Shown here: piece by piece, positions 33,978-42,496 of the stretch | Layout: each line of letters begins with the position of its first letter | How positions within the stretch are numbered: position 1 is the first letter of the stretch | Origin: Gammaproteobacteria bacterium | Lineage (GTDB): Bacteria > Pseudomonadota > Gammaproteobacteria > Eutrophobiales > Eutrophobiaceae | Reading direction: 5' to 3' | DNA: 64,000 nt | Assembly: GCA_965221695.1 (NCBI GenBank) | Contig: OZ244905.1 | Coordinates: 3,328,001 to 3,392,000, forward strand | Notes under the pieces: generated by a model | The model's input: the letters and a program-made list of their open reading frames with translations, nothing else | What the model was told of the DNA's origin: nothing | Database searches by the model: none | Made by a program: the position numbers and the translations under genes

Positions 33978-34045
33978 TAAGGATATCCTGCTCGATTCAG
34001 GGTTTTCCGTGCTCTGACAAGCCCCGGATGGACTTGTTCAGAGCC
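33978..34045. repeat. Short degenerate copy of the IS5-like miniature element
   Basis: GTGCTCTGACAAG-CCCC-GGATGGACTTGTTCAGAGC nearly identical to 8475-8510, preceded by a decayed first hairpin. Confidence 0.7.
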
Positions 34046-34084
34046 TGTCAATGACTATCCTAGTCATGATAAGCGGCAGCAGAG

Positions 34085-34107
34085 TAATACATTGTTTAGA
34101 TGTATTA
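34085..34107. promoter_or_regulatory. Candidate operator palindrome in the divergent promoter region
   Basis: TAATACAT-TGTTTAG-ATGTATTA, perfect 8-bp arms. Confidence 0.45.
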
Positions 34108-34152
34108 TGAGTTTTTGATATGACCGCAATCAAAATAGATGCCGGCGGTATC

Positions 34153-34397
34153 TAGCCCGGAAATCTCACCAATTCGCTTGTCAGCATTAGATAGATGTTT
34201 GCTGTCAATGAGTTATGATAATTTGCCAAGTATGTTGCCATTACACACTGCGCTTGATGCGCCCTCGCTGGTCTTTTTTGCGTTAGCGGGCACATGCTCC
34301 CTCAACCAGAAGAACCACTATGCTTTCGGTCGCGAGCACCCGCTAACGCAAAAAATCCTCAGCGATCATCGCATCAATTGGTGAGATTTCCGGGCTA
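34153..34397 (+). mobile_element. 245-bp MITE, copy 1
   Basis: TA-GCCCGGAAATCTCACCAATT...AATTGGTGAGATTTCCGGGC-TA perfect terminal IRs; internal 17-bp IR at 34274-34290/34339-34355. Confidence 0.88.
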
Positions 34398-34553
34398 AAC
34401 CCGTTCTCATTATTTCCGAAGGCCGCAAGACAGTTGTTGATTCTTAATTTAATTGCAGGATAAAAAATAAGTATTACCGGGATTGCCGCGAGGTGATTTA
34501 TCGTTTGACAGTGTTCAGCGTCAGGATGAGGATGAAAAGTGAAAACAGTTAAA

Positions 34554-35765
34554 ATGGGTATGAACAATACCGGCCCGTTAAGAGATATCAGAATCCTGGA
34601 TTTGTCCAGGCTGCTGGCCGGGAATTTCCTGTCTTTTCACCTGGCGGAGTTGGGCGCAGATGTGGTAAAAATCGAGAACACGCGCCAGGGCGACCCGCTG
34701 CGGGATTTCACTACCAAAGGCAAACAGGTTGCGTGGAAAATATTGTGCCGCAACAAGCGCAGCCTGTCTTTAAACTACACGACAGATGCACGCGGGCGCG
34801 AGTTGCTGTTCCGGTTGTTGGAGAATGCCCACGGGCTGATTGAAAATTTCAAACCCGGCGGCATGGAAAAATTCGGTTTGGCGCCCGATGTGCTGCACCG
34901 GGTCAACCCCAGGCTCGTGATCGTTCGCGTCAGTGGTTGGGGGCAGGATGGTCCTTACTCGCACAAGCCGGGTTTTGGCACGCTGGTGGAGGCATTTTCG
35001 GGTTATGCGGCCAAATCCGGTTTCCCGGACAGTGAACCACTACTGCCGAACCTGGGACTGGCGGACATGATCACCGGTGTTACCGGTGCGTTTTCACTGC
35101 TTTCCGCGATCAGGGAGGTCGAGGTGAACGGCGGCCGGGGACAGGTCATCGATCTCAGCCTGCTGGACGGTATCACCAGTTTCCTCGGCATTGATCCGGC
35201 GATTTGCCGGTTGACCGGCAAGCCAATTCCCAGGCTCGGCAACAGGGGTGAAGTCTCGGCGCCGCGTAACCTGTACCGAACAAGCGACGGGCGTTACATC
35301 GCCATTTCCGCCTCCATGCAATCCATGTTTGATAAGTTGTTCATCGCGATAGGGCAGGCAGACCTGCTGGATGATCCCAGGTTCAGGACCAATGAGGATC
35401 GCGTCAGGAACAGCGATAAACTGGATGAGATATTGGGCGCATTCATCGCCCGGCGCAGCGCCAGGGACAACCTGGACTTCTTCGAGAAAAATGATGTGAC
35501 CGCGGGTCCGCTCTACGATGCCATCGAGATCCTGAACGACCCGCATGTACAGGAACGTGGCGTTTATGTCTCGGTGGACGACCCGGACCTGGGGCCGATG
35601 CCGGCGCCGAATATTGCGGCCCGGTTATCCGCGACACCCGGTAGTCTGCGCACCCATGCGCCAAAGCTTGGCGAGCATACCGAGGAGATTCTGCATGCAT
35701 TGGGCTTGACCGGCAACGAGATAGCCGGGCTGGAAGCTGAACAGGTGATCAAATGCAACAGGTAA
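34554..35765 (+). CDS. CaiB/BaiF class III CoA-transferase
   Basis: GPLRDIRILDLS, GADVVKIE, RNKRS, ENFKPG, GLADMITG catalytic Asp. Confidence 0.93.
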   Translation: MGMNNTGPLRDIRILDLSRLLAGNFLSFHLAELGADVVKIENTRQGDPLRDFTTKGKQVAWKILCRNKRSLSLNYTTDARGRELLFRLLENAHGLIENFKPGGMEKFGLAPDVLHRVNPRLVIVRVSGWGQDGPYSHKPGFGTLVEAFSGYAAKSGFPDSEPLLPNLGLADMITGVTGAFSLLSAIREVEVNGGRGQVIDLSLLDGITSFLGIDPAICRLTGKPIPRLGNRGEVSAPRNLYRTSDGRYIAISASMQSMFDKLFIAIGQADLLDDPRFRTNEDRVRNSDKLDEILGAFIARRSARDNLDFFEKNDVTAGPLYDAIEILNDPHVQERGVYVSVDDPDLGPMPAPNIAARLSATPGSLRTHAPKLGEHTEEILHALGLTGNEIAGLEAEQVIKCNR

Positions 35766-36598
35766 CCACGCAATTTTACCGTTCTCTGCTGTTTGTGCCC
35801 GTGTTGGTAAAGCGGCGCGTCAACAAAGCTGCCGGTCTGCACGCCGATACCATCATACTGGACCTGGAGGCTTCTATTCCACTGGCTCAGAAACAGGAAG
35901 CCAGGGACAAGGCGCCCGAAGTGGCGGATTTTTTGCGGGCCGCCGGCAAGTCGGTCATGATTAGAATCAACCGTGCCAACGCAGAGGATGCGGTAATGGC
36001 CGCGGCCGCTGATATAGATGGCCTGGTGGTCCCTGTCGTTGAACAACCGGATGATATCTATGGCATCATCAACGCAATTCGCGCAGCAGGACTGACGGCG
36101 CCGCCGCTTCTCCCCATTATTGAAACGCCGCGGGGTCTGCTTAATTTGAGTGAGCTGATCAGCATCGACGCGGGCGTTTGCGGCCTGGCATTCGGGGCGG
36201 AAGATTTCGTCCAGGTGATGGGCAGTCGCGCCCTGCCTTGTGCTGATCTGCTGTTCAACGGCGCTTGGCAGGTGGCTGTGACCGCCAGGGCCTACGGCAT
36301 TAAGCCCTATGGAATTGCCGGCAGCCTGGTTGACTTCAACGACCTGGACACTTACCGCACGCTTTGTGAGCAGGCCAGGCGCATCGGCATGGTGGGTTGC
36401 CCGGCAATACATCCGGGCCAGCTTGACGTTCTCAACGAAGTCTTTTCAGCGTCCCCGGCAGAACTGTCTTACGCGTCCAGGGCAATAGCCGAATTTGAAG
36501 CTGCCGGAGAAAAAGCGATTGCCGTAGAGGGCCGGTTGGTGGATTACCCGATATATTTCAGATTCAAGCAATTACTGGAAGAGTACGGTCAAGCATAG
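35753..36598 (+). CDS. CitE/HpcH-family CoA-ester lyase
   Basis: RSLLFVP, IILDLE, IRIN, IETP, FGAEDF, IHPGQ. Confidence 0.88.
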   Translation: MQQVTTQFYRSLLFVPVLVKRRVNKAAGLHADTIILDLEASIPLAQKQEARDKAPEVADFLRAAGKSVMIRINRANAEDAVMAAAADIDGLVVPVVEQPDDIYGIINAIRAAGLTAPPLLPIIETPRGLLNLSELISIDAGVCGLAFGAEDFVQVMGSRALPCADLLFNGAWQVAVTARAYGIKPYGIAGSLVDFNDLDTYRTLCEQARRIGMVGCPAIHPGQLDVLNEVFSASPAELSYASRAIAEFEAAGEKAIAVEGRLVDYPIYFRFKQLLEEYGQA

Positions 36599-36648
36599 TC
36601 GCTGTGTCACAATTTCACTCCGGGCAGTTCACTTAGCTCCGCCCGCAG

Positions 36649-36673
36649 GCAGGCGGGACGCCTGCAATCCCGG
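36649..36673. repeat. REP-like hairpin between convergent genes
   Basis: GCAGGCGGGACGCCTGCAATCCCGG. Confidence 0.5.
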
Positions 36674-36727
36674 GCTGGATGTGCCCCGAACTTATCCGCC
36701 GCAACACCGGGCCAACACCCAGCCGCA

Positions 36728-37249
36728 TTACTTATCCGGAATCAACGGATCGGGAATGTCATAAAATTCGACTTCGACGCTTACCTGGCCGCTACGTGTG
36801 AGCCGATCCACTTCCCGGGCATCGGGACCGAGCGGTTCCTTGAATTCCCCGAGCTGCGGCATGCCTTTCTCCATCTTTGATTTGGCCTTCAGTACCATTT
36901 CGTGCAGCTCTGCGGAGTAGGGCAGTTGGTGCGACCTCGGACGGGACCTGCCGGACAGGTCATTGAGGTCTTTGAGCCAGAGATAGACCTTGCCCTCGGC
37001 GCCAGTCATCTTATCCGGCTGTACAATATCCGCGGCGACCAGGCGAAAACGCGCCGGGGGCTGGTCCCCGGTCGGCCAGCCAAGCAACGGGGGCCAGGAC
37101 AGGTACGTGATAACGTACAGCAGCGTGGTGGCCACGATGGAACCGGCCTTGACTTTCCACGACCAGTTGGAATACAGGTTGATGCTCAGCAGCAGCAGCG
37201 CAACCAGTACATAAGCGGCGACCAATCCGGTGATTCCCAGTGTATACAC
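36728..37249 (-). CDS. Hypothetical two-TM protein with soluble domain (third gene of motor-like module)
   Basis: Two N-terminal TMs, LLGWP, VYLWL, PRSHQLPYS; AAGGAGA RBS. Confidence 0.85.
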   Translation of the reverse strand: MYTLGITGLVAAYVLVALLLLSINLYSNWSWKVKAGSIVATTLLYVITYLSWPPLLGWPTGDQPPARFRLVAADIVQPDKMTGAEGKVYLWLKDLNDLSGRSRPRSHQLPYSAELHEMVLKAKSKMEKGMPQLGEFKEPLGPDAREVDRLTRSGQVSVEVEFYDIPDPLIPDK

Positions 37250-37278
37250 GATGATTTCTCCTTTGCGGCGATGAATGT

Positions 37279-37523
37279 TAGCCCGAATATCTCACCAATT
37301 GATGCGATGATCGCTGAGGATTTTTTGCGTTAGCGGGTACTCGCGACCGAAAGCATAGTGGTTCTTCTGGTTGAGGGAGCATGTGCCCGCTAACGCAAAA
37401 AAGACCAGCGAGGGCGCATCAAGCGCAGTGTGTAATGGCGACATACTCGACAGATTACCATAACTCATTGACAGTAAACATCTATCCGATGCTAACAAGC
37501 GAATTGGTGAGATATTCGGGTTA
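37279..37523 (-). mobile_element. 245-bp MITE, copy 2 (inverted relative to copy 1)
   Basis: TA-GCCCGAATATCTCACCAATT...AATTGGTGAGATATTCGGGT-TA; colinear with copy 1; end overlaps the stop codon at 37521-37523. Confidence 0.88.
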
Positions 37524-38114
37524 GCCGATAGATACCAGTTGTTTCGGCAAGAAATTGATGTTTGATACTTTTCCGTCGATGTTGATGCGGAACCTGAAGG
37601 CCGTTTTCTCCACGCCGTTTTGTTCCAGGGTAACCGTATCGTAATACACGATCTCCAGGGATGGATTGACCTTCACCAGGCGCACCTGTACATCAACGGG
37701 TTGTCCGGTTTCCGTTGCGTAATAATGCAGGTTGACGATGTATTCACCTTTTACCACCCCCCTGATGGTAACGACTTCCTGGTTGAGCGGGTTCTGCAGC
37801 TCCTCGCCATTGACTAAGATGGTGTCGTTGACCAGTCCCCTGTCATCGCGGTCCAAGTGCAGCAAGCCTGCTTCCGGGTTGCGGAACCAGACCACCCTGC
37901 CGTCCGGGTCTTCGACCCATACATCAATGTCATCGGGGTTATTGTCTTCCCAGGTGATGGTAAGAATATATTCGGCCTTCGGGTCGATGATCCCGGACTT
38001 GGCCTCGGGATTCATGAACATGATTGCCACCAGGAACAGGAAGGTAAAACCCAGCAGGGCATTGAACAGCAGGTCCGTGAACGGGTCCGATTGGTAGCGC
38101 TTGTAGTTGTTCAC
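37521..38114 (-). CDS. ExbD/MotB-like single-TM protein with YfaP/DUF2135-like domain
   Basis: DPFTDLLFNALLGF TM with intramembrane Asp; W..DDIDVWVEDPDG..LDRDDRG..GEYIVNLHYY. Confidence 0.7.
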   Translation of the reverse strand: MNNYKRYQSDPFTDLLFNALLGFTFLFLVAIMFMNPEAKSGIIDPKAEYILTITWEDNNPDDIDVWVEDPDGRVVWFRNPEAGLLHLDRDDRGLVNDTILVNGEELQNPLNQEVVTIRGVVKGEYIVNLHYYATETGQPVDVQVRLVKVNPSLEIVYYDTVTLEQNGVEKTAFRFRINIDGKVSNINFLPKQLVSIG

Positions 38115-38857
38115 GTCAGCTTGGGCAGGATATGCACCTGGGTCAGGTGCTTGGTGGTATCGATCAGTTCATCGGCAGCCTGGTCCAGCAGGTGGAACTG
38201 GGCCGCGGTCAGGATACTGCAGGTCAGCCCGGCAAACGTGGTGTATAACGCGGTGCCCATACCCGAACTCATCTCCTTGAGTATATTCTGCATCGTCGTC
38301 ACGTCAAAGTCCGTTACATTCACCACGGAACCGAGCATCAGCACAAAACCGATGATCGTGCCCAGCAGCCCCAGTTTTATCATGATATCGGTACAGAACC
38401 AGCCCAGGTTATGGGGATTTTTAAGTTTCGCCTCAAAAACCTCGATCAATTCCTTGTTGTTCGCATTCACCGTAATGTTTTCGGTCTGCTCATCCGGCGC
38501 CGGGCTGGATTGCGCCCGATAGAACAGGTCCAGCAGGTAACGGGTCAGCAGGCAGTCGGGCAACTTTTCGTTGTTGTCCAGGTATACCTGATCGCCGTTC
38601 ACCGCAAGCTCGTGCCGGCGCGCCAGCGCGTAGACCTTCTCCGAGTGATTGATTTCCACCGAGATAAACCATACCCGGCGTGCGCAGTACAGGGTCATGA
38701 TGATGAACATCAGCGTGATGACCCAGGACAGCTTGCTGACGTCGCCCAGGTAAAGCAACAGCAGCACTTTCTCGCGCAGCGCGAGGAACAGCGCAAAACC
38801 GATCAAGCTGATTAGCAGCAACCATACAAGTAATAAATGATGTTCGCCTTTTTTCAT
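38111..38857 (-). CDS. MotA/TolQ/ExbB proton-channel family protein
   Basis: LGLLGTIIGF and SGMGTALYTTFAGL helices plus two N-terminal TMs. Confidence 0.85.
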   Translation of the reverse strand: MKKGEHHLLLVWLLLISLIGFALFLALREKVLLLLYLGDVSKLSWVITLMFIIMTLYCARRVWFISVEINHSEKVYALARRHELAVNGDQVYLDNNEKLPDCLLTRYLLDLFYRAQSSPAPDEQTENITVNANNKELIEVFEAKLKNPHNLGWFCTDIMIKLGLLGTIIGFVLMLGSVVNVTDFDVTTMQNILKEMSSGMGTALYTTFAGLTCSILTAAQFHLLDQAADELIDTTKHLTQVHILPKLT

Positions 38858-38894
38858 GATTGTTTTTAGGAACCTCCTTTATTTCAGCGGGCAG

Positions 38895-38909
38895 GCAAAT
38901 TCTATCCCG
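38895..38909 (-). promoter_or_regulatory. Candidate sigma54 -24/-12 promoter
   Basis: Minus strand CGGGATAGAATTTGC (GG-N10-GC), upstream of AAGGAGG and the motA-like gene. Confidence 0.4.
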
Positions 38910-38932
38910 GATCCTTTGTGTCTGCCCCCCCG

Positions 38933-39478
38933 TTACTCCCGTATCACCACCTTGGTGCCCAGCGGGATATATTTTCTCAGTTCGTTAATCTCTTCGTTGG
39001 TCACTGCTATACAGCCTTCCGTCCAGTTGTGCGCCTCATGTATCCGGCTTTTCTCGTCAGTGATCCGACCGATGCCGTGGATGCCGATATATCCGCCGAG
39101 TCCGGTATTCTGCGGCGGTAGGCTATTACGCTTGTACGCGAGGACAATCTGCTTGAATTCGACGGCAGAAATGACCTCATTCGAGTAACCGCGCCAGGCA
39201 TCAAGGGGGTTAGGATAATTTAACTGGATGAAAAAATGAAATTTACTGTTGGATTTGAAATCAATCACCCGGTATGTGCCAATAGGCGTCTTGTTATCGC
39301 CGGCGCGTATCTTCGTGCCTTTCCCGCCTCTCCCGTGAGAGATATCGTAATACCTGATCACTTCCTCATCCTGCTTGACCACCAGCGTACGCTCGGACTT
39401 GCTGACCTCGACGGTATACGGCGACGCGGCTGCCGCCAGGCAGAAAATACTCAGGATGATGGTGAACAGGAATTTCAT
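38933..39478 (-). CDS. L,D-transpeptidase (YkuD family)
   Basis: Signal peptide, GDNKTPIGTY, LNYPN, IGIHG...WTEGCIAV catalytic His/Cys. Confidence 0.92.
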   Translation of the reverse strand: MKFLFTIILSIFCLAAAASPYTVEVSKSERTLVVKQDEEVIRYYDISHGRGGKGTKIRAGDNKTPIGTYRVIDFKSNSKFHFFIQLNYPNPLDAWRGYSNEVISAVEFKQIVLAYKRNSLPPQNTGLGGYIGIHGIGRITDEKSRIHEAHNWTEGCIAVTNEEINELRKYIPLGTKVVIRE

Positions 39479-39551
39479 CGAAGCCTATTTTTAAGGTTTA
39501 CGCTGCGGAAATCAACTGGTTCATTTTAACCACCTGCATTATACTGTCTCC

Positions 39552-41054
39552 ATGGCTTATGCTCGCAAACGATCTCTCAGTCACCTGTTGCTGGTGCATG
39601 AGATCGCCTTCCTGTTCTTAGTGGCAGTGACCGGCTTGCTCACCGGTTTGTCCGCCTACCTGTGGCAGAAAACCTCAGCGGCATCCGACCGCATCAACAA
39701 CTCGATTTACCTGAGTGAGCAGTTACGCGGCGAACTGTATCGGCAATTGCAGCAGGTTTCGCGGGCGCGCTGGTCCGGCGACGAGGATGCGCTGGAAGTA
39801 TATTATGAATATTCAAGGCGTATCGGCCGCCATTTCAACCAGTTGCGGCGCACTTCTCTGACCCGGGACGAAGATGAGGTGGTGCAGGCGCTGCAACTGG
39901 CTTACCGTAAGATTCAGATCGATATTTACCGCATCTTCGACGAACCCGCTCGTCCGGACACGACAGGAACACCGCATATCATGGATTTTCGCAATGCCGA
40001 TGCGATGTTTGATGAGTTCGAGCAGAAATACCTGGAATTGAAGGCGCTGTACACAGAACAGCTCCGGGAACTGGAACAGACCATTGAATTCTGGACCCGC
40101 TATGCGCCGGTTTTGATCCCGGTGCTGTTCCTGCTGGCTGTCGTCATCGTGGTGATTACCAGCCGCATAATCCGCAACAGTTTCGTGCGGCCGATGGCTG
40201 CGATCATGGCCGGCGCAACGGAAATCAGCCGCGGCGAACTGGGCCACAGGATTCCGGAACAAGGTGTGAATGAGGTCGCGCAACTGGCCGGTTCCATCAA
40301 CCATATGGCCGCGGAGTTGAAAACCAGCCGTGATGCGCTGGTGGAGCATGAACGGCAGGCAGCGCTGGGGAGTCTTATCCCGGTCGTCGCCCACAATATC
40401 CGCAACCCGCTGGCCAGTATCAGGGCTGCCGCGCAAGTGCTGGACGACGCAGACAACAAGGACGAACTGAAGGAAGGCAAGCAGGCCATCGTCGGCACCA
40501 TCGACCGCCTGGGGCGCTGGGTGAATGCGCTGGTCTCCTACCTGCATCCGTTGCAGCCCGAGTTAAGAGATGTCGGCGTTGTTGCATTGCTGGATGCGGC
40601 GCTGGCGCTGTTGCAGACCAAAATCTCAGAGAAGGCAATCACTGTGAAGCGGGAATACCGGGACCTGTCAATCACTCTCAAGGTGGACCCGGACCTGATG
40701 GAGCAGGCGATCTACGGCCTGATGGCCAATGCCGTGGACGCCTCGCCGGCCCGCGTCGAACTGTTGATAACAGTGACTGAAACGGAACAGGCCGTGATTA
40801 TAGGCATTCGCGATTACGGCCCCGGCCTGCCGTTCAAGCCGGAACCCGGAAACCTCGAACCCGGCCCTTCCACGAAACGCTTCGGCACCGGCCTGGGCAT
40901 ACCCATTGCATTCAAAATCTGCCAGAGTCATGGCTGGCGCCTGGATTTTGAGACGCAGGAAACCGGAACCCTGGCAAGAATTACCGCGCCAAAACGCGAA
41001 CCAGCGGAACAATCGGGCCAGGGTGAAATCTCTTCTGACCCCCATATATCCTGA
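39552..41054 (+). CDS. HAMP-domain sensor histidine kinase
   Basis: Two TMs, helical periplasmic sensor, HAMP, AHNIRNPL H-box, DYGPG and GTGLG. Confidence 0.92.
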   Translation: MAYARKRSLSHLLLVHEIAFLFLVAVTGLLTGLSAYLWQKTSAASDRINNSIYLSEQLRGELYRQLQQVSRARWSGDEDALEVYYEYSRRIGRHFNQLRRTSLTRDEDEVVQALQLAYRKIQIDIYRIFDEPARPDTTGTPHIMDFRNADAMFDEFEQKYLELKALYTEQLRELEQTIEFWTRYAPVLIPVLFLLAVVIVVITSRIIRNSFVRPMAAIMAGATEISRGELGHRIPEQGVNEVAQLAGSINHMAAELKTSRDALVEHERQAALGSLIPVVAHNIRNPLASIRAAAQVLDDADNKDELKEGKQAIVGTIDRLGRWVNALVSYLHPLQPELRDVGVVALLDAALALLQTKISEKAITVKREYRDLSITLKVDPDLMEQAIYGLMANAVDASPARVELLITVTETEQAVIIGIRDYGPGLPFKPEPGNLEPGPSTKRFGTGLGIPIAFKICQSHGWRLDFETQETGTLARITAPKREPAEQSGQGEISSDPHIS

Positions 41055-42496
41055 TGCCAGATAACGACATCACAAGACACAGCAGTCCCCTGGTGACAGA
41101 AACCGAGGTGCCGCTGCTGGAGAAGAGCATACTGATCATCGAGGATGAGTCGGTATTTGCCGGCGCGGTGCGCAAGCGATTGGCGCGCGCCGGGTACAAC
41201 GCCGAAGTCGCCGGCGACCTTGCGCAAGGCGCGGCAAAACTCAAGGAAACCACCCCGGACCTGTTGCTGCTGGACATGCGTCTGCCCGACGGTTCCGGCC
41301 TGGATTTTCTGTCCGGCTTGCAGGATAACGGCGAGAGCGCGTTTCCGGTACTGGTAATGTCCGCTTACGGCGAGATTGAAGACGCGGTGTCGGCGATGAA
41401 GTCGGGGGCGTCCGATTACCTGAAAAAACCGATCGACCTTGATGAACTGATAATTACCGTCGAGCGGGTCCTGGAACAGGCTGCGCTGTCCCGGAAGCTG
41501 ACCTATTCCAGCAAGCGCGAGCAACACTCCCATGAAGGTGTGGAATTCCTCGGCGAGAGTCCTGCGGTGACTGCCGTCAGGCAACAGATCGAACGCCTGC
41601 AACAGGTAACCGGCGCGGCGGTTCCGCCCACCATCCTGGTTCTGGGTGAGACCGGCGCCGGCAAGGACGTGGTAGCCCGGCTGCTGCATGCGAACAGCGC
41701 CCGCAGCGAACGCCCGTTCGTGCACGTGGATTGCGCAAGCCTGCCCAAGGACCTGATCGAGGCCGAGCTGTTTGGCCACGAGAAAGGCGCGTTCACCAGC
41801 GCGCACGCGGCCCGGACGGGCCTGATCGAGGCGGCGGAGGACGGGGTGTTGTTCATGGATGAAATCGGCGAATTACCGATGGATTTGCAGGCAAAATTAC
41901 TCGCGGTGCTAGAACGCAGAACCTTGAGGAAGGTCGGCGCCACCAAGGAACGCCCGGTGGCGGCCTGGATCATCGCGGCCACCAACCGGGATATCGCCGA
42001 CCTGGTGAACCGGGGCGAATTCCGTTCCGACCTGTATTACCGCCTGAACGTATTGTCGATTTCGCTGGCGCCGTTGCGCGATCGGGGCGATGATATAATC
42101 TTGCTGGCCAGGCATTTCATGGCCCAGAGCGCCAAACGCTACGGCATAAGCTCCCTGGGTCTTTCCGCGCAGGCCGTGCAAGCGCTCAAGGCATACCACT
42201 GGCCGGGCAACGTGCGTGAGTTGAAGCACATGATTGAACGGGCCGTATTACTGTCCGGAGAAGGCGAATTGTCTGCCGCCAGCCTGTCCTTGGCTGCCCC
42301 GGCACAGCCCGAGGTGGGGACGGACATCGGCAGCTCGCCCGTTGTCGAGGCTGATTTGACGCTGGATGACGCAGAGCTGCTGCTGATTAAAAATGCGCTG
42401 GATAAGTGTAACGGCAATGTGTCCAGGGCAGCCCGTGAACTGGGCATTACCCGCATGGCCCTGCGCTACCGGATTAAAAAACACAACCTTGATTGA
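41054..42496 (+). CDS. Sigma54-dependent response regulator (NtrC family)
   Basis: Receiver LLDMRLPD, GETGAGK, GAFTSA loop, WPGNVREL, Fis HTH. Confidence 0.95.
   Translation: MPDNDITRHSSPLVTETEVPLLEKSILIIEDESVFAGAVRKRLARAGYNAEVAGDLAQGAAKLKETTPDLLLLDMRLPDGSGLDFLSGLQDNGESAFPVLVMSAYGEIEDAVSAMKSGASDYLKKPIDLDELIITVERVLEQAALSRKLTYSSKREQHSHEGVEFLGESPAVTAVRQQIERLQQVTGAAVPPTILVLGETGAGKDVVARLLHANSARSERPFVHVDCASLPKDLIEAELFGHEKGAFTSAHAARTGLIEAAEDGVLFMDEIGELPMDLQAKLLAVLERRTLRKVGATKERPVAAWIIAATNRDIADLVNRGEFRSDLYYRLNVLSISLAPLRDRGDDIILLARHFMAQSAKRYGISSLGLSAQAVQALKAYHWPGNVRELKHMIERAVLLSGEGELSAASLSLAAPAQPEVGTDIGSSPVVEADLTLDDAELLLIKNALDKCNGNVSRAARELGITRMALRYRIKKHNLD

Follow-up and report, generated by a model that had tools for sequence, protein, structure and literature searches.

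We analysed a 64,000-nucleotide stretch of contig OZ244905.1 (positions 3,328,001 to 3,392,000 of the forward strand, assembly GCA_965221695.1) from a gammaproteobacterium of the family Eutrophobiaceae, hereafter the window, and describe a group of three consecutive minus-strand genes, called here gene 1, gene 2 and gene 3, or the trio. Four minus-strand open reading frames (ORFs) are packed closely at this place, namely a YkuD-type L,D-transpeptidase and, downstream of it, the three genes of the trio. As a whole, we read the trio with reasonable, though not strong, confidence as a distinct branch of the MotA/ExbB 5:2 motor superfamily, acting as one membrane complex. The three genes are:

38111-38857, minus strand: gene 1 (248 amino acids), a channel subunit of the MotA/ExbB/TolQ superfamily, putatively the pentameric "A" subunit
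37521-38114, minus strand: gene 2 (197 amino acids, GTG start), the putative "B" subunit
36728-37249, minus strand: gene 3 (173 amino acids), the putative third subunit, with a transmembrane (TM) hairpin and a small domain

Genes 1 and 2 have 4 nt in common (38111-38114). A sequence-only reading of this DNA had located the same ORFs and picked out the motifs GLLGTIIG and ALYTTFAG in gene 1 and PFTDLLF in gene 2; its coordinates are correct, and all three motifs were found in the translations.

The three proteins of the locus

Gene 1 belongs to the MotA/TolQ/ExbB family, as had been proposed from the sequence. Its residues 146-234 match the Pfam profile PF01618 (MotA_ExbB) with E 1.1e-8 and 35.3 bits, above the gathering score of 22.9 bits, and the same profile was matched at E<=0.01 by 63/63 aligned gene 1 relatives. 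The protein has 4 TM helices. Alignment of the 63 sequences revealed D39, G163, G166, T167, G170 and T207 as invariant residues, and the channel threonines T167 and T207 are in addition present in every filled column of 186 matches. Pore-lining threonines on the last two TM helices are given as a feature of the MotA/TolQ/ExbB family in section 8 of PMC12204202. We also observed that Asp39 (38741-38743), located in the loop before TM2, is invariant in 63/63 sequences and in all filled columns of the 186 matches; on the topology that we infer, it would face the periplasm.

The protein carries a cytoplasmic insert of about 75-80 amino acids (about residues 70-145), which is absent from the versions encoded by phages. 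These phage ring subunits are only about 150-190 amino acids long and, to our knowledge, the smallest of the superfamily. Overall, 839 of 2056 candidates were retained as gene 1 homologues.

Comparison with named families gave no closer assignment for gene 1. Searches of NCBIfam and PADLOC returned only weak ZorA-type matches, far under the cut-offs, and across the 63 members the NCBIfam matches were distributed among ZorA_4 (38), ZorA_2 (22), TolQ (15), PomA (14), MotP (8) and ExbB (5), all of them far below cut-off. Gene 1 is the weakest of the 8 matches to PF01618 in the genome, which also contains 5 matches to ExbD; these adjoin four of the other PF01618 loci. When the 63 trio proteins were combined with 7 paralogues from the same genome in a maximum-likelihood tree, the paralogues fell on one side of a branch (Shimodaira-Hasegawa-like approximate likelihood ratio test, SH-aLRT, 85), and the viral gene 1 proteins made up one side of a branch with SH-aLRT 100. 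The trio had been expected to stand apart from ordinary ExbBD/TolQR systems, and it does so both by this split of gene 1 from the paralogues of its own genome and by the colinear co-occurrence of the three genes described below.

The AlphaFold2 model of gene 2, built with 93 diverse sequences, reached a predicted local distance difference test score (pLDDT) of 92.2 and is composed of a helix (residues 10-33), a 15-residue linker and a beta-sandwich (49-187). The TM helix is predicted to be oriented N-in, with an acidic sandwich placed in the periplasm. Asp14, the intramembrane Asp, lies in the helix near its cytoplasmic end; it is kept in 91/93 aligned representatives and in 172/180 homologues, corresponding to 92/100 bacterial and 80/80 viral sequences. 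Apart from one truncated bacterial homologue, the exceptions have Ala at this column and belong to a bacterial subclade (loci L012, L013, L062, L093, L095, L099 and L100). Residues W55, D62, D64, D90, D91, D97 and E113 are kept in 180/180, and six of these seven are acidic. With its single N-terminal helix carrying an Asp, as in MotB and ExbD, the modelled gene 2 product looks like a B subunit.

The soluble part of gene 2 is neither of the ExbD nor of the OmpA type, in agreement with the sequence-only reading. No match was found at E<=1 to either ExbD/TolR (PF02472) or the OmpA family, and no OmpA-like domain is present in the model; among the 93 relatives only one matched ExbD weakly (E 0.005), over the helix part. 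The closest solved folds to the sandwich are those of TerD, with VIA Z scores of 9.6 (132 residues aligned, root-mean-square deviation 3.7) and then 9.5, the next entry being at 6.0, and with Foldseek E-values of 2.3e-4 to 6.3e-4. The top TerD structure entry is titled for calcium-binding properties, and by analogy the gene 2 sandwich probably binds calcium too. At the level of sequence profiles, comparison with 25 TerD domains (PF02342) by hhalign gave 0.5%, that is, no similarity.

The likeness to YfaP/DUF2135 that had been noticed from the sequence is probably real, and remote. The gene 2 profile aligned with the C-terminal domains of YfaP (8 sequences, 6 distinct) at 89.8% and E 1.8e-6 over 73 columns in hhalign, while a reversed control gave 0.9%. 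The Pfam model DUF2135 (PF09906), which spans only 48 positions, was matched by 3/93 gene 2 relatives (best E 0.0011), and some homologues are named "YfaP (DUF2135 family)" by the Joint Genome Institute (JGI); gene 2 of this genome had no Pfam match to DUF2135 or TerD. In the sequences compared, a fusion to a MotB-like helix, as in gene 2, was seen for neither of YfaP and TerD.

Gene 2 had no match in Pfam, NCBIfam, PADLOC or PHROGs, its ESM Atlas matches were only to unnamed clusters, and its profile gave nothing significant against PDB sequences. The viral structure library BFVD contained only distant TerD-like proteins at 9-16% identity. The family is nevertheless large: in the 90% collection, 3354 of 3592 candidates were homologues at E<=0.001, with identities of 77% or more throughout the best 120, and 1844 clusters at 50% identity matched at E<=1e-3. 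One protein of 411 amino acids (P0289) was matched by the gene 1 hidden Markov model (HMM) over residues 21-244 and by the gene 2 HMM over residues 273-408, and it reads as a possible fusion of genes 1 and 2.

Gene 3 had been described as membrane-anchored and without known family, and this description held. Its AlphaFold2 model (pLDDT 88.3) has two TM helices (residues 3-26 and 31-55) followed by a small alpha/beta, sheet-plus-helix domain; the C-terminal part consists of a variable, poorly modelled linker and then a strand (160-164) that rejoins the sheet. No match was found in Pfam, NCBIfam, PADLOC or PHROGs, nor to TonB_C at E<=1, and the ESM Atlas contained only unnamed clusters. At E<=0.001 Foldseek returned no match, its top rows being OB-like small barrels at E about 0.1, and the helical hairpin (residues 1-58) took up the list of VIA matches.

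Among 81 aligned gene 3 sequences, Gly57, part of a GWPT motif where the chain leaves the membrane, is invariant, and W91, P104, R105, Y111 and G129 are each conserved in 90% or more; near the C-terminus, the motif FYxLPxxxxPxK is conserved too. No His is present in residues 1-57. The loop between the two helices is rich in K/R (2.14 K/R versus 0.07 D/E) and therefore, by the positive-inside rule, the protein would be N-out/C-out, with a domain that is probably periplasmic. In total, 272 of 460 candidates were gene 3 homologues. Two copies of gene 3 were seen in locus L012 and likewise in four further loci.

Conservation of the trio in bacteria and phages

Loci were scanned with patterns derived from a 14-sequence alignment, the three genes were identified by iterated HMM search, and the best 80 loci were kept per collection (bacterial genomes and IMG/VR); the sample of loci leans therefore to closer relatives. 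The survey of co-occurrence suggested by the sequence-only reading gave a clear result, as the trio was colinear in 176/180 loci examined. The order 1-2-3 was found in 20/20 loci of related genomes, in 77/80 public bacterial loci and in 79/80 IMG/VR viral loci, and in the single viral locus without the full trio (L136) gene 2 begins at base 8 of the contig. Distances between the genes, which were measured from longest-ORF starts and are thus lower bounds, were also short: between genes 1 and 2 the gap was <=10 nt in 76/97 bacterial and 77/79 viral loci, and between genes 2 and 3 it was <=50 nt in 73/97 bacterial and 73/79 viral loci. These are the gaps of a translationally coupled operon, and the three genes are an inseparable unit, conserved far beyond chance.

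We also looked at the distribution of the module among bacteria. Gene 2 is present in all 24 other genomes of the family of the source genome and in 11/301 genomes drawn evenly from the phylum. By their record titles, bacterial carriers include gamma- and alphaproteobacterial metagenome-assembled genomes (MAGs), some of them from Pelagibacteraceae and Rickettsiales, besides one MAG labelled Nitrospirae and one labelled Deltaproteobacteria. Spectribacter hydrogenoxidans W335 (locus L077) is an example of a carrier in culture. The possibility that the copy in the window came in with a prophage or an island was ruled out by its flat base composition and by synteny conserved within the genus.

The trio had been expected in phage genomes, and there it was found, both on IMG/VR contigs and in records of cultured phages. 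Of 346 IMG/VR candidate stretches, 287 encode a relative of gene 2 with an identity of about 40-49%, and many of these lie on contigs 100-527 kb long. Among 78 neighbour ORFs from 8 viral loci, many match hallmark PHROGs of phages, such as large terminase, head maturation protease, endolysin, Rz-like spanin, PhoH, Hsp20 and peptide deformylase. In a curated phage collection, 29 records matched, all of them from cultured Rhizobium or Sinorhizobium phages. Using our own HMMs, we identified the trio of Rhizobium phage RHph_I1_9 as EVC04_146/147/148 and that of the classical temperate Sinorhizobium/Rhizobium phage 16-3 (locus L181, 22651-24512 of the record) as p038, p040 and p042, with the small unrelated ORFs p039 and p041 lying between the genes; in both phages the genes are annotated as hypothetical. 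The module is self-contained and mobile between phages and bacteria, with vertical inheritance in the genus, a patchy distribution elsewhere in the phylum and common occurrence in large phages.

A proposed ion-driven motor and its alternatives

The 5:2 ion-driven motors known to us are few (Mot/Pom, Exb, Tol, Agl, Gld/Por, Sii and Zor), and each of them opened a field. That the trio contains the motor core of such a system is, in our view, likely. Gene 1 would form an ion-conducting ring, a pentamer, into which two copies of gene 2 would insert their Asp-bearing helices, as MotB, ExbD and TolR do, and the flow of ions down the membrane potential would turn the ring against this axle. The compact acidic beta-sandwich of the axle would sit just above the inner membrane, unlike in every named branch, and gene 3 would be a hairpin-anchored periplasmic third subunit that either rides on the ring or docks on the sandwich. 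In the version that we prefer, the sandwich would grip an envelope polymer, for example cell-wall glycan, taking the role of the wall anchor of MotB, and gene 3 would be the driven part or a regulating one. Because phage gene 1 proteins are almost devoid of the cytoplasmic loop, the output would be periplasmic, near the inner membrane, rather than cytoplasmic. What the analysis shows is the family to which gene 1 belongs, the conservation of the Asp/Thr set, the gene 2 fold and the joint occurrence of the genes; stoichiometry, rotation, gene 3 topology, calcium binding and output are what we infer here. As for gene 3 in particular, a role as force transducer, which had been proposed from the sequence, is possible but rather doubtful.

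The layout recalls ExbB-ExbD-TonB and TolQ-TolR-TolA, in which three inner-membrane proteins are likewise encoded together: an A subunit of the PF01618 family with channel threonines, a B subunit with one N-terminal helix and a membrane Asp, and a third membrane-anchored periplasmic protein. Unlike in those systems, gene 1 has 4 TM helices and its cytoplasmic domain is small or missing, the ExbD/TolR domain is replaced in gene 2 by a YfaP/TerD-like beta-sandwich, and the trio, which is not known to have a partner in the outer membrane, is also found in phages. Gene 3 differs from TonB and TolA in its two TM helices and in lacking a His/SHLS motif, a long linker and a TonB_C domain; according to section 8 of PMC12204202, TonB and TolA are characterised by one TM helix, the SHLS/His motif, a long linker and a TonB_C-type domain. 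As had been noted from the sequence, the genes that adjoin the trio include no TonB, TolA, flagellar or Zor partner.

With MotA-MotB and PomA-PomB the trio shares a 4-TM A subunit and the Asp/Thr set, and weak PomA and MotP matches were obtained in 14 and 8 of the 63 members. It differs from them in that gene 2 has no OmpA-like peptidoglycan-binding domain or plug, gene 1 lacks a large cytoplasmic loop for generating torque and the surroundings contain no flagellar genes. The gene 2 periplasmic domain aligns, as reported above, with the C-terminal domain of YfaP (DUF2135).

A parallel in the literature is in section 8 of PMC12204202, which predicts TolQ-like pentamers with an Asp-bearing partner that has a vWA periplasmic domain and a trans-pore helix. 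Like those motors, the trio has a new B-type subunit with a non-ExbD periplasmic domain; unlike them, as far as they are presented in that section (heterologous pairs with no third hairpin protein), it has a beta-sandwich and gene 3. The same paper states that more such motor systems remain to be found, and PMC12505986 groups the relatives without a flagellar role together as diverse "generic ion transporters"; the sections of these two papers considered here do not describe the trio. A literature search, from which subscription journals and the supplements of PMC12505986 and PMC12204202 were outside scope, returned no paper on the trio and no occurrence of the term "DUF2135".

Several observations weigh against reading the trio as a separate motor branch. 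The outgroup of the gene 1 tree consists of 7 paralogues of one genome, with long branches, in a quick maximum-likelihood reconstruction. In seven of the 100 bacterial gene 2 homologues the Asp14 column is occupied by Ala, and a Lys follows four residues later; the Asp is therefore not universal. Gene 2 is without a recognisable peptidoglycan-binding domain and without a plug helix, and gene 3 is without a long linker. The 411-residue protein P0289 may be an artefact of gene calling, given the 4-nt overlap of genes 1 and 2. In this genome, moreover, a repeat inserted in front of gene 3 (described below) might uncouple it from the other two genes.

Among the alternatives, we considered that the trio could be a conflict module of phage origin, providing superinfection exclusion or a Zorya-like sensing of the envelope at the inner membrane, with the bacterial copies being domesticated. 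The presence of a relative in 287/346 IMG/VR stretches, of which the best 80 have nearly all the whole trio, would agree with this, as would the 29 records of cultured Rhizobium/Sinorhizobium phages and the patchy occurrence in the phylum (11/301 genomes). Moreover, the best named-family likeness of gene 1 is to ZorA (ZorA_4 in 38/63 members, besides the ZorA matches of PADLOC), so that with ZorA-ZorB the trio shares a channel core that scores best against ZorA models and a link to phage biology. The gene 2 fold is TerD-like, and ter operons also give resistance to phages and colicins. However, the ZorA_4 score is only 25.2 bits against a cut-off of 500, gene 1 lacks the long ZorA tail, and gene 2 has no ZorB-type domain. 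No effector gene accompanies the trio: PADLOC found no ZorB, ZorC, ZorD or ZorE, and gene 2, gene 3 and the transpeptidase were without any match in it. In the family, 24/24 genomes carry the gene, its chromosomal surroundings are stable and include the transpeptidase and a two-component system, and the composition is unremarkable. Taken together, we consider a conflict module unlikely.

It could also be that the proteins make a gated ion channel and not a motor. Genes 1 and 2 would then let protons or cations leak through the membrane, under the control of calcium on the sandwich and of gene 3, and this leak would tune the membrane potential, for example in the timing of phage lysis or in bacterial stress responses. 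This would be consistent with phage gene 1 proteins having almost no cytoplasmic domain for torque, with the lack of an obvious anchor or long transducer and with the invariant acidic cluster of gene 2. In 2/8 annotated viral loci (L129 and L104) the trio adjoins an endolysin or a spanin, but no lysis gene adjoins it in the other 6/8, and over 80 viral loci the recurrent neighbours are only GDP-mannose dehydratase (15) and unrelated genes. A third subunit that is strictly conserved and has a folded domain of its own also points to an output, and all characterised members of the superfamily that we know of couple ion flow to mechanical work. A gated channel is, on this evidence, quite improbable.

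An ordinary Ton/Tol paralogue using a TonB or TolA encoded elsewhere might be proposed from the PF01618 membership of gene 1, the weak TolQ and ExbB matches in 15 and 5 of 63 members and a TonB-dependent receptor 2.8 kb away, but this is hardly credible, as gene 2 has no ExbD match and a periplasmic domain of different fold, PF01618 genes with an adjoining ExbD exist at four other places in the genome, the trio has its own third gene in 176/180 loci, and no TonB-dependent receptor was seen among the 8 annotated phage loci.

Returning to the motor reading, the trio might, tentatively, be the first ion-driven rotary motor that is routinely virus-borne, that is, a minimal three-protein 5:2 machine placed in the host inner membrane for a periplasmic job. 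If this were true, phages would tap the membrane potential in order to remodel or hold the wall and the outer membrane, or to exclude rivals, and several bacterial lineages would have kept the same machine for envelope work. The branch would be distinguished by a new axle domain, a new third subunit, a large size (1844 clusters) and its sharing between bacteria and phages. As it is carried by cultured Rhizobium phages, knock-outs are possible, and the small phage forms are attractive for structural work. An unannotated "hypothetical" pair beside a "MotA/TolQ/ExbB family protein" would thereby become a system that can be tested.

Neighbouring genes, inserted repeat and regulation

Two further features lie directly beside or within the trio:

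38933-39478, minus strand: YkuD-type L,D-transpeptidase (181 amino acids) with a signal peptide, Pfam YkuD E 3.6e-22
37278-37524, no strand assigned: repeat of 247 nt, like a miniature inverted-repeat transposable element (MITE), which fills the spacer between genes 2 and 3

The repeat takes up almost the whole of the 271-nt spacer between genes 2 and 3. An inverted copy is present at 34152-34398 (94% complementary), and of 58 matches to it in the genome, 8 are full length. The element carries terminal inverted repeats, its RNA fold has a z score of -7.58, and Rfam gave no match on 34000-39700, repeat included. In a relative with 98% identical genes, the repeat is absent and the spacer is only about 35 nt long; the repeat is therefore a recent insertion, outside the system.

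The transpeptidase was correctly placed upstream of gene 1 on the same strand by the sequence-only reading, and the start of gene 1 is 75 nt from it. As a hint of envelope work, for which it had been taken, this neighbour is weakened. A transpeptidase was found at <=5 kb from the trio in 18/20 relatives and in 49/80 bacterial loci but in 0/80 viral loci, and therefore it is lineage-specific and not part of the core.

The regions on both sides of the four genes were also inspected. Upstream and divergent (39552-42496) lie genes for a HAMP histidine kinase and a sigma-54-dependent response regulator, a pair that is conserved in relatives of the genus. Downstream, on the other strand, follow an HpcH/citrate-lyase-like gene and a family III CoA-transferase, and behind these two plus-strand genes comes the TonB-dependent receptor gene, 2.8 kb from the trio. 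A scan for sigma-70 promoters and terminators showed no excess over shuffled sequences. The sigma-54 consensus gave 77 matches versus 83.6 expected, with none in 38850-39560, and no sigma-54 promoter-like site was present in the 73-nt intergenic region between the kinase-regulator pair and the block of transpeptidase and trio.

Neighbours were also counted among the three nearest ORFs on each side of 80 bacterial loci:

40/80 loci: YkuD transpeptidase
34/80 loci: DUF302 protein, directly upstream of gene 1
32/80 loci: vWA+FHA membrane protein, directly downstream of the trio
23/80 loci: uncharacterised protein of 239 amino acids

Since no neighbour is universal, the trio itself is the core, and neither the DUF302 nor the vWA+FHA neighbour is present in the window. 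The vWA+FHA protein is roughly 500 amino acids long, has its FHA domain at the C-terminus and lies just past gene 3 (seen among loci L021-L100). Around the viral trio, GDP-mannose 4,6-dehydratase is the only frequent neighbour (15/80 loci); the dehydratase/epimerase gene lies directly downstream of the trio, for example in L118 (7236-8321), L132 (7211-8194) and L128 (2701-3777).

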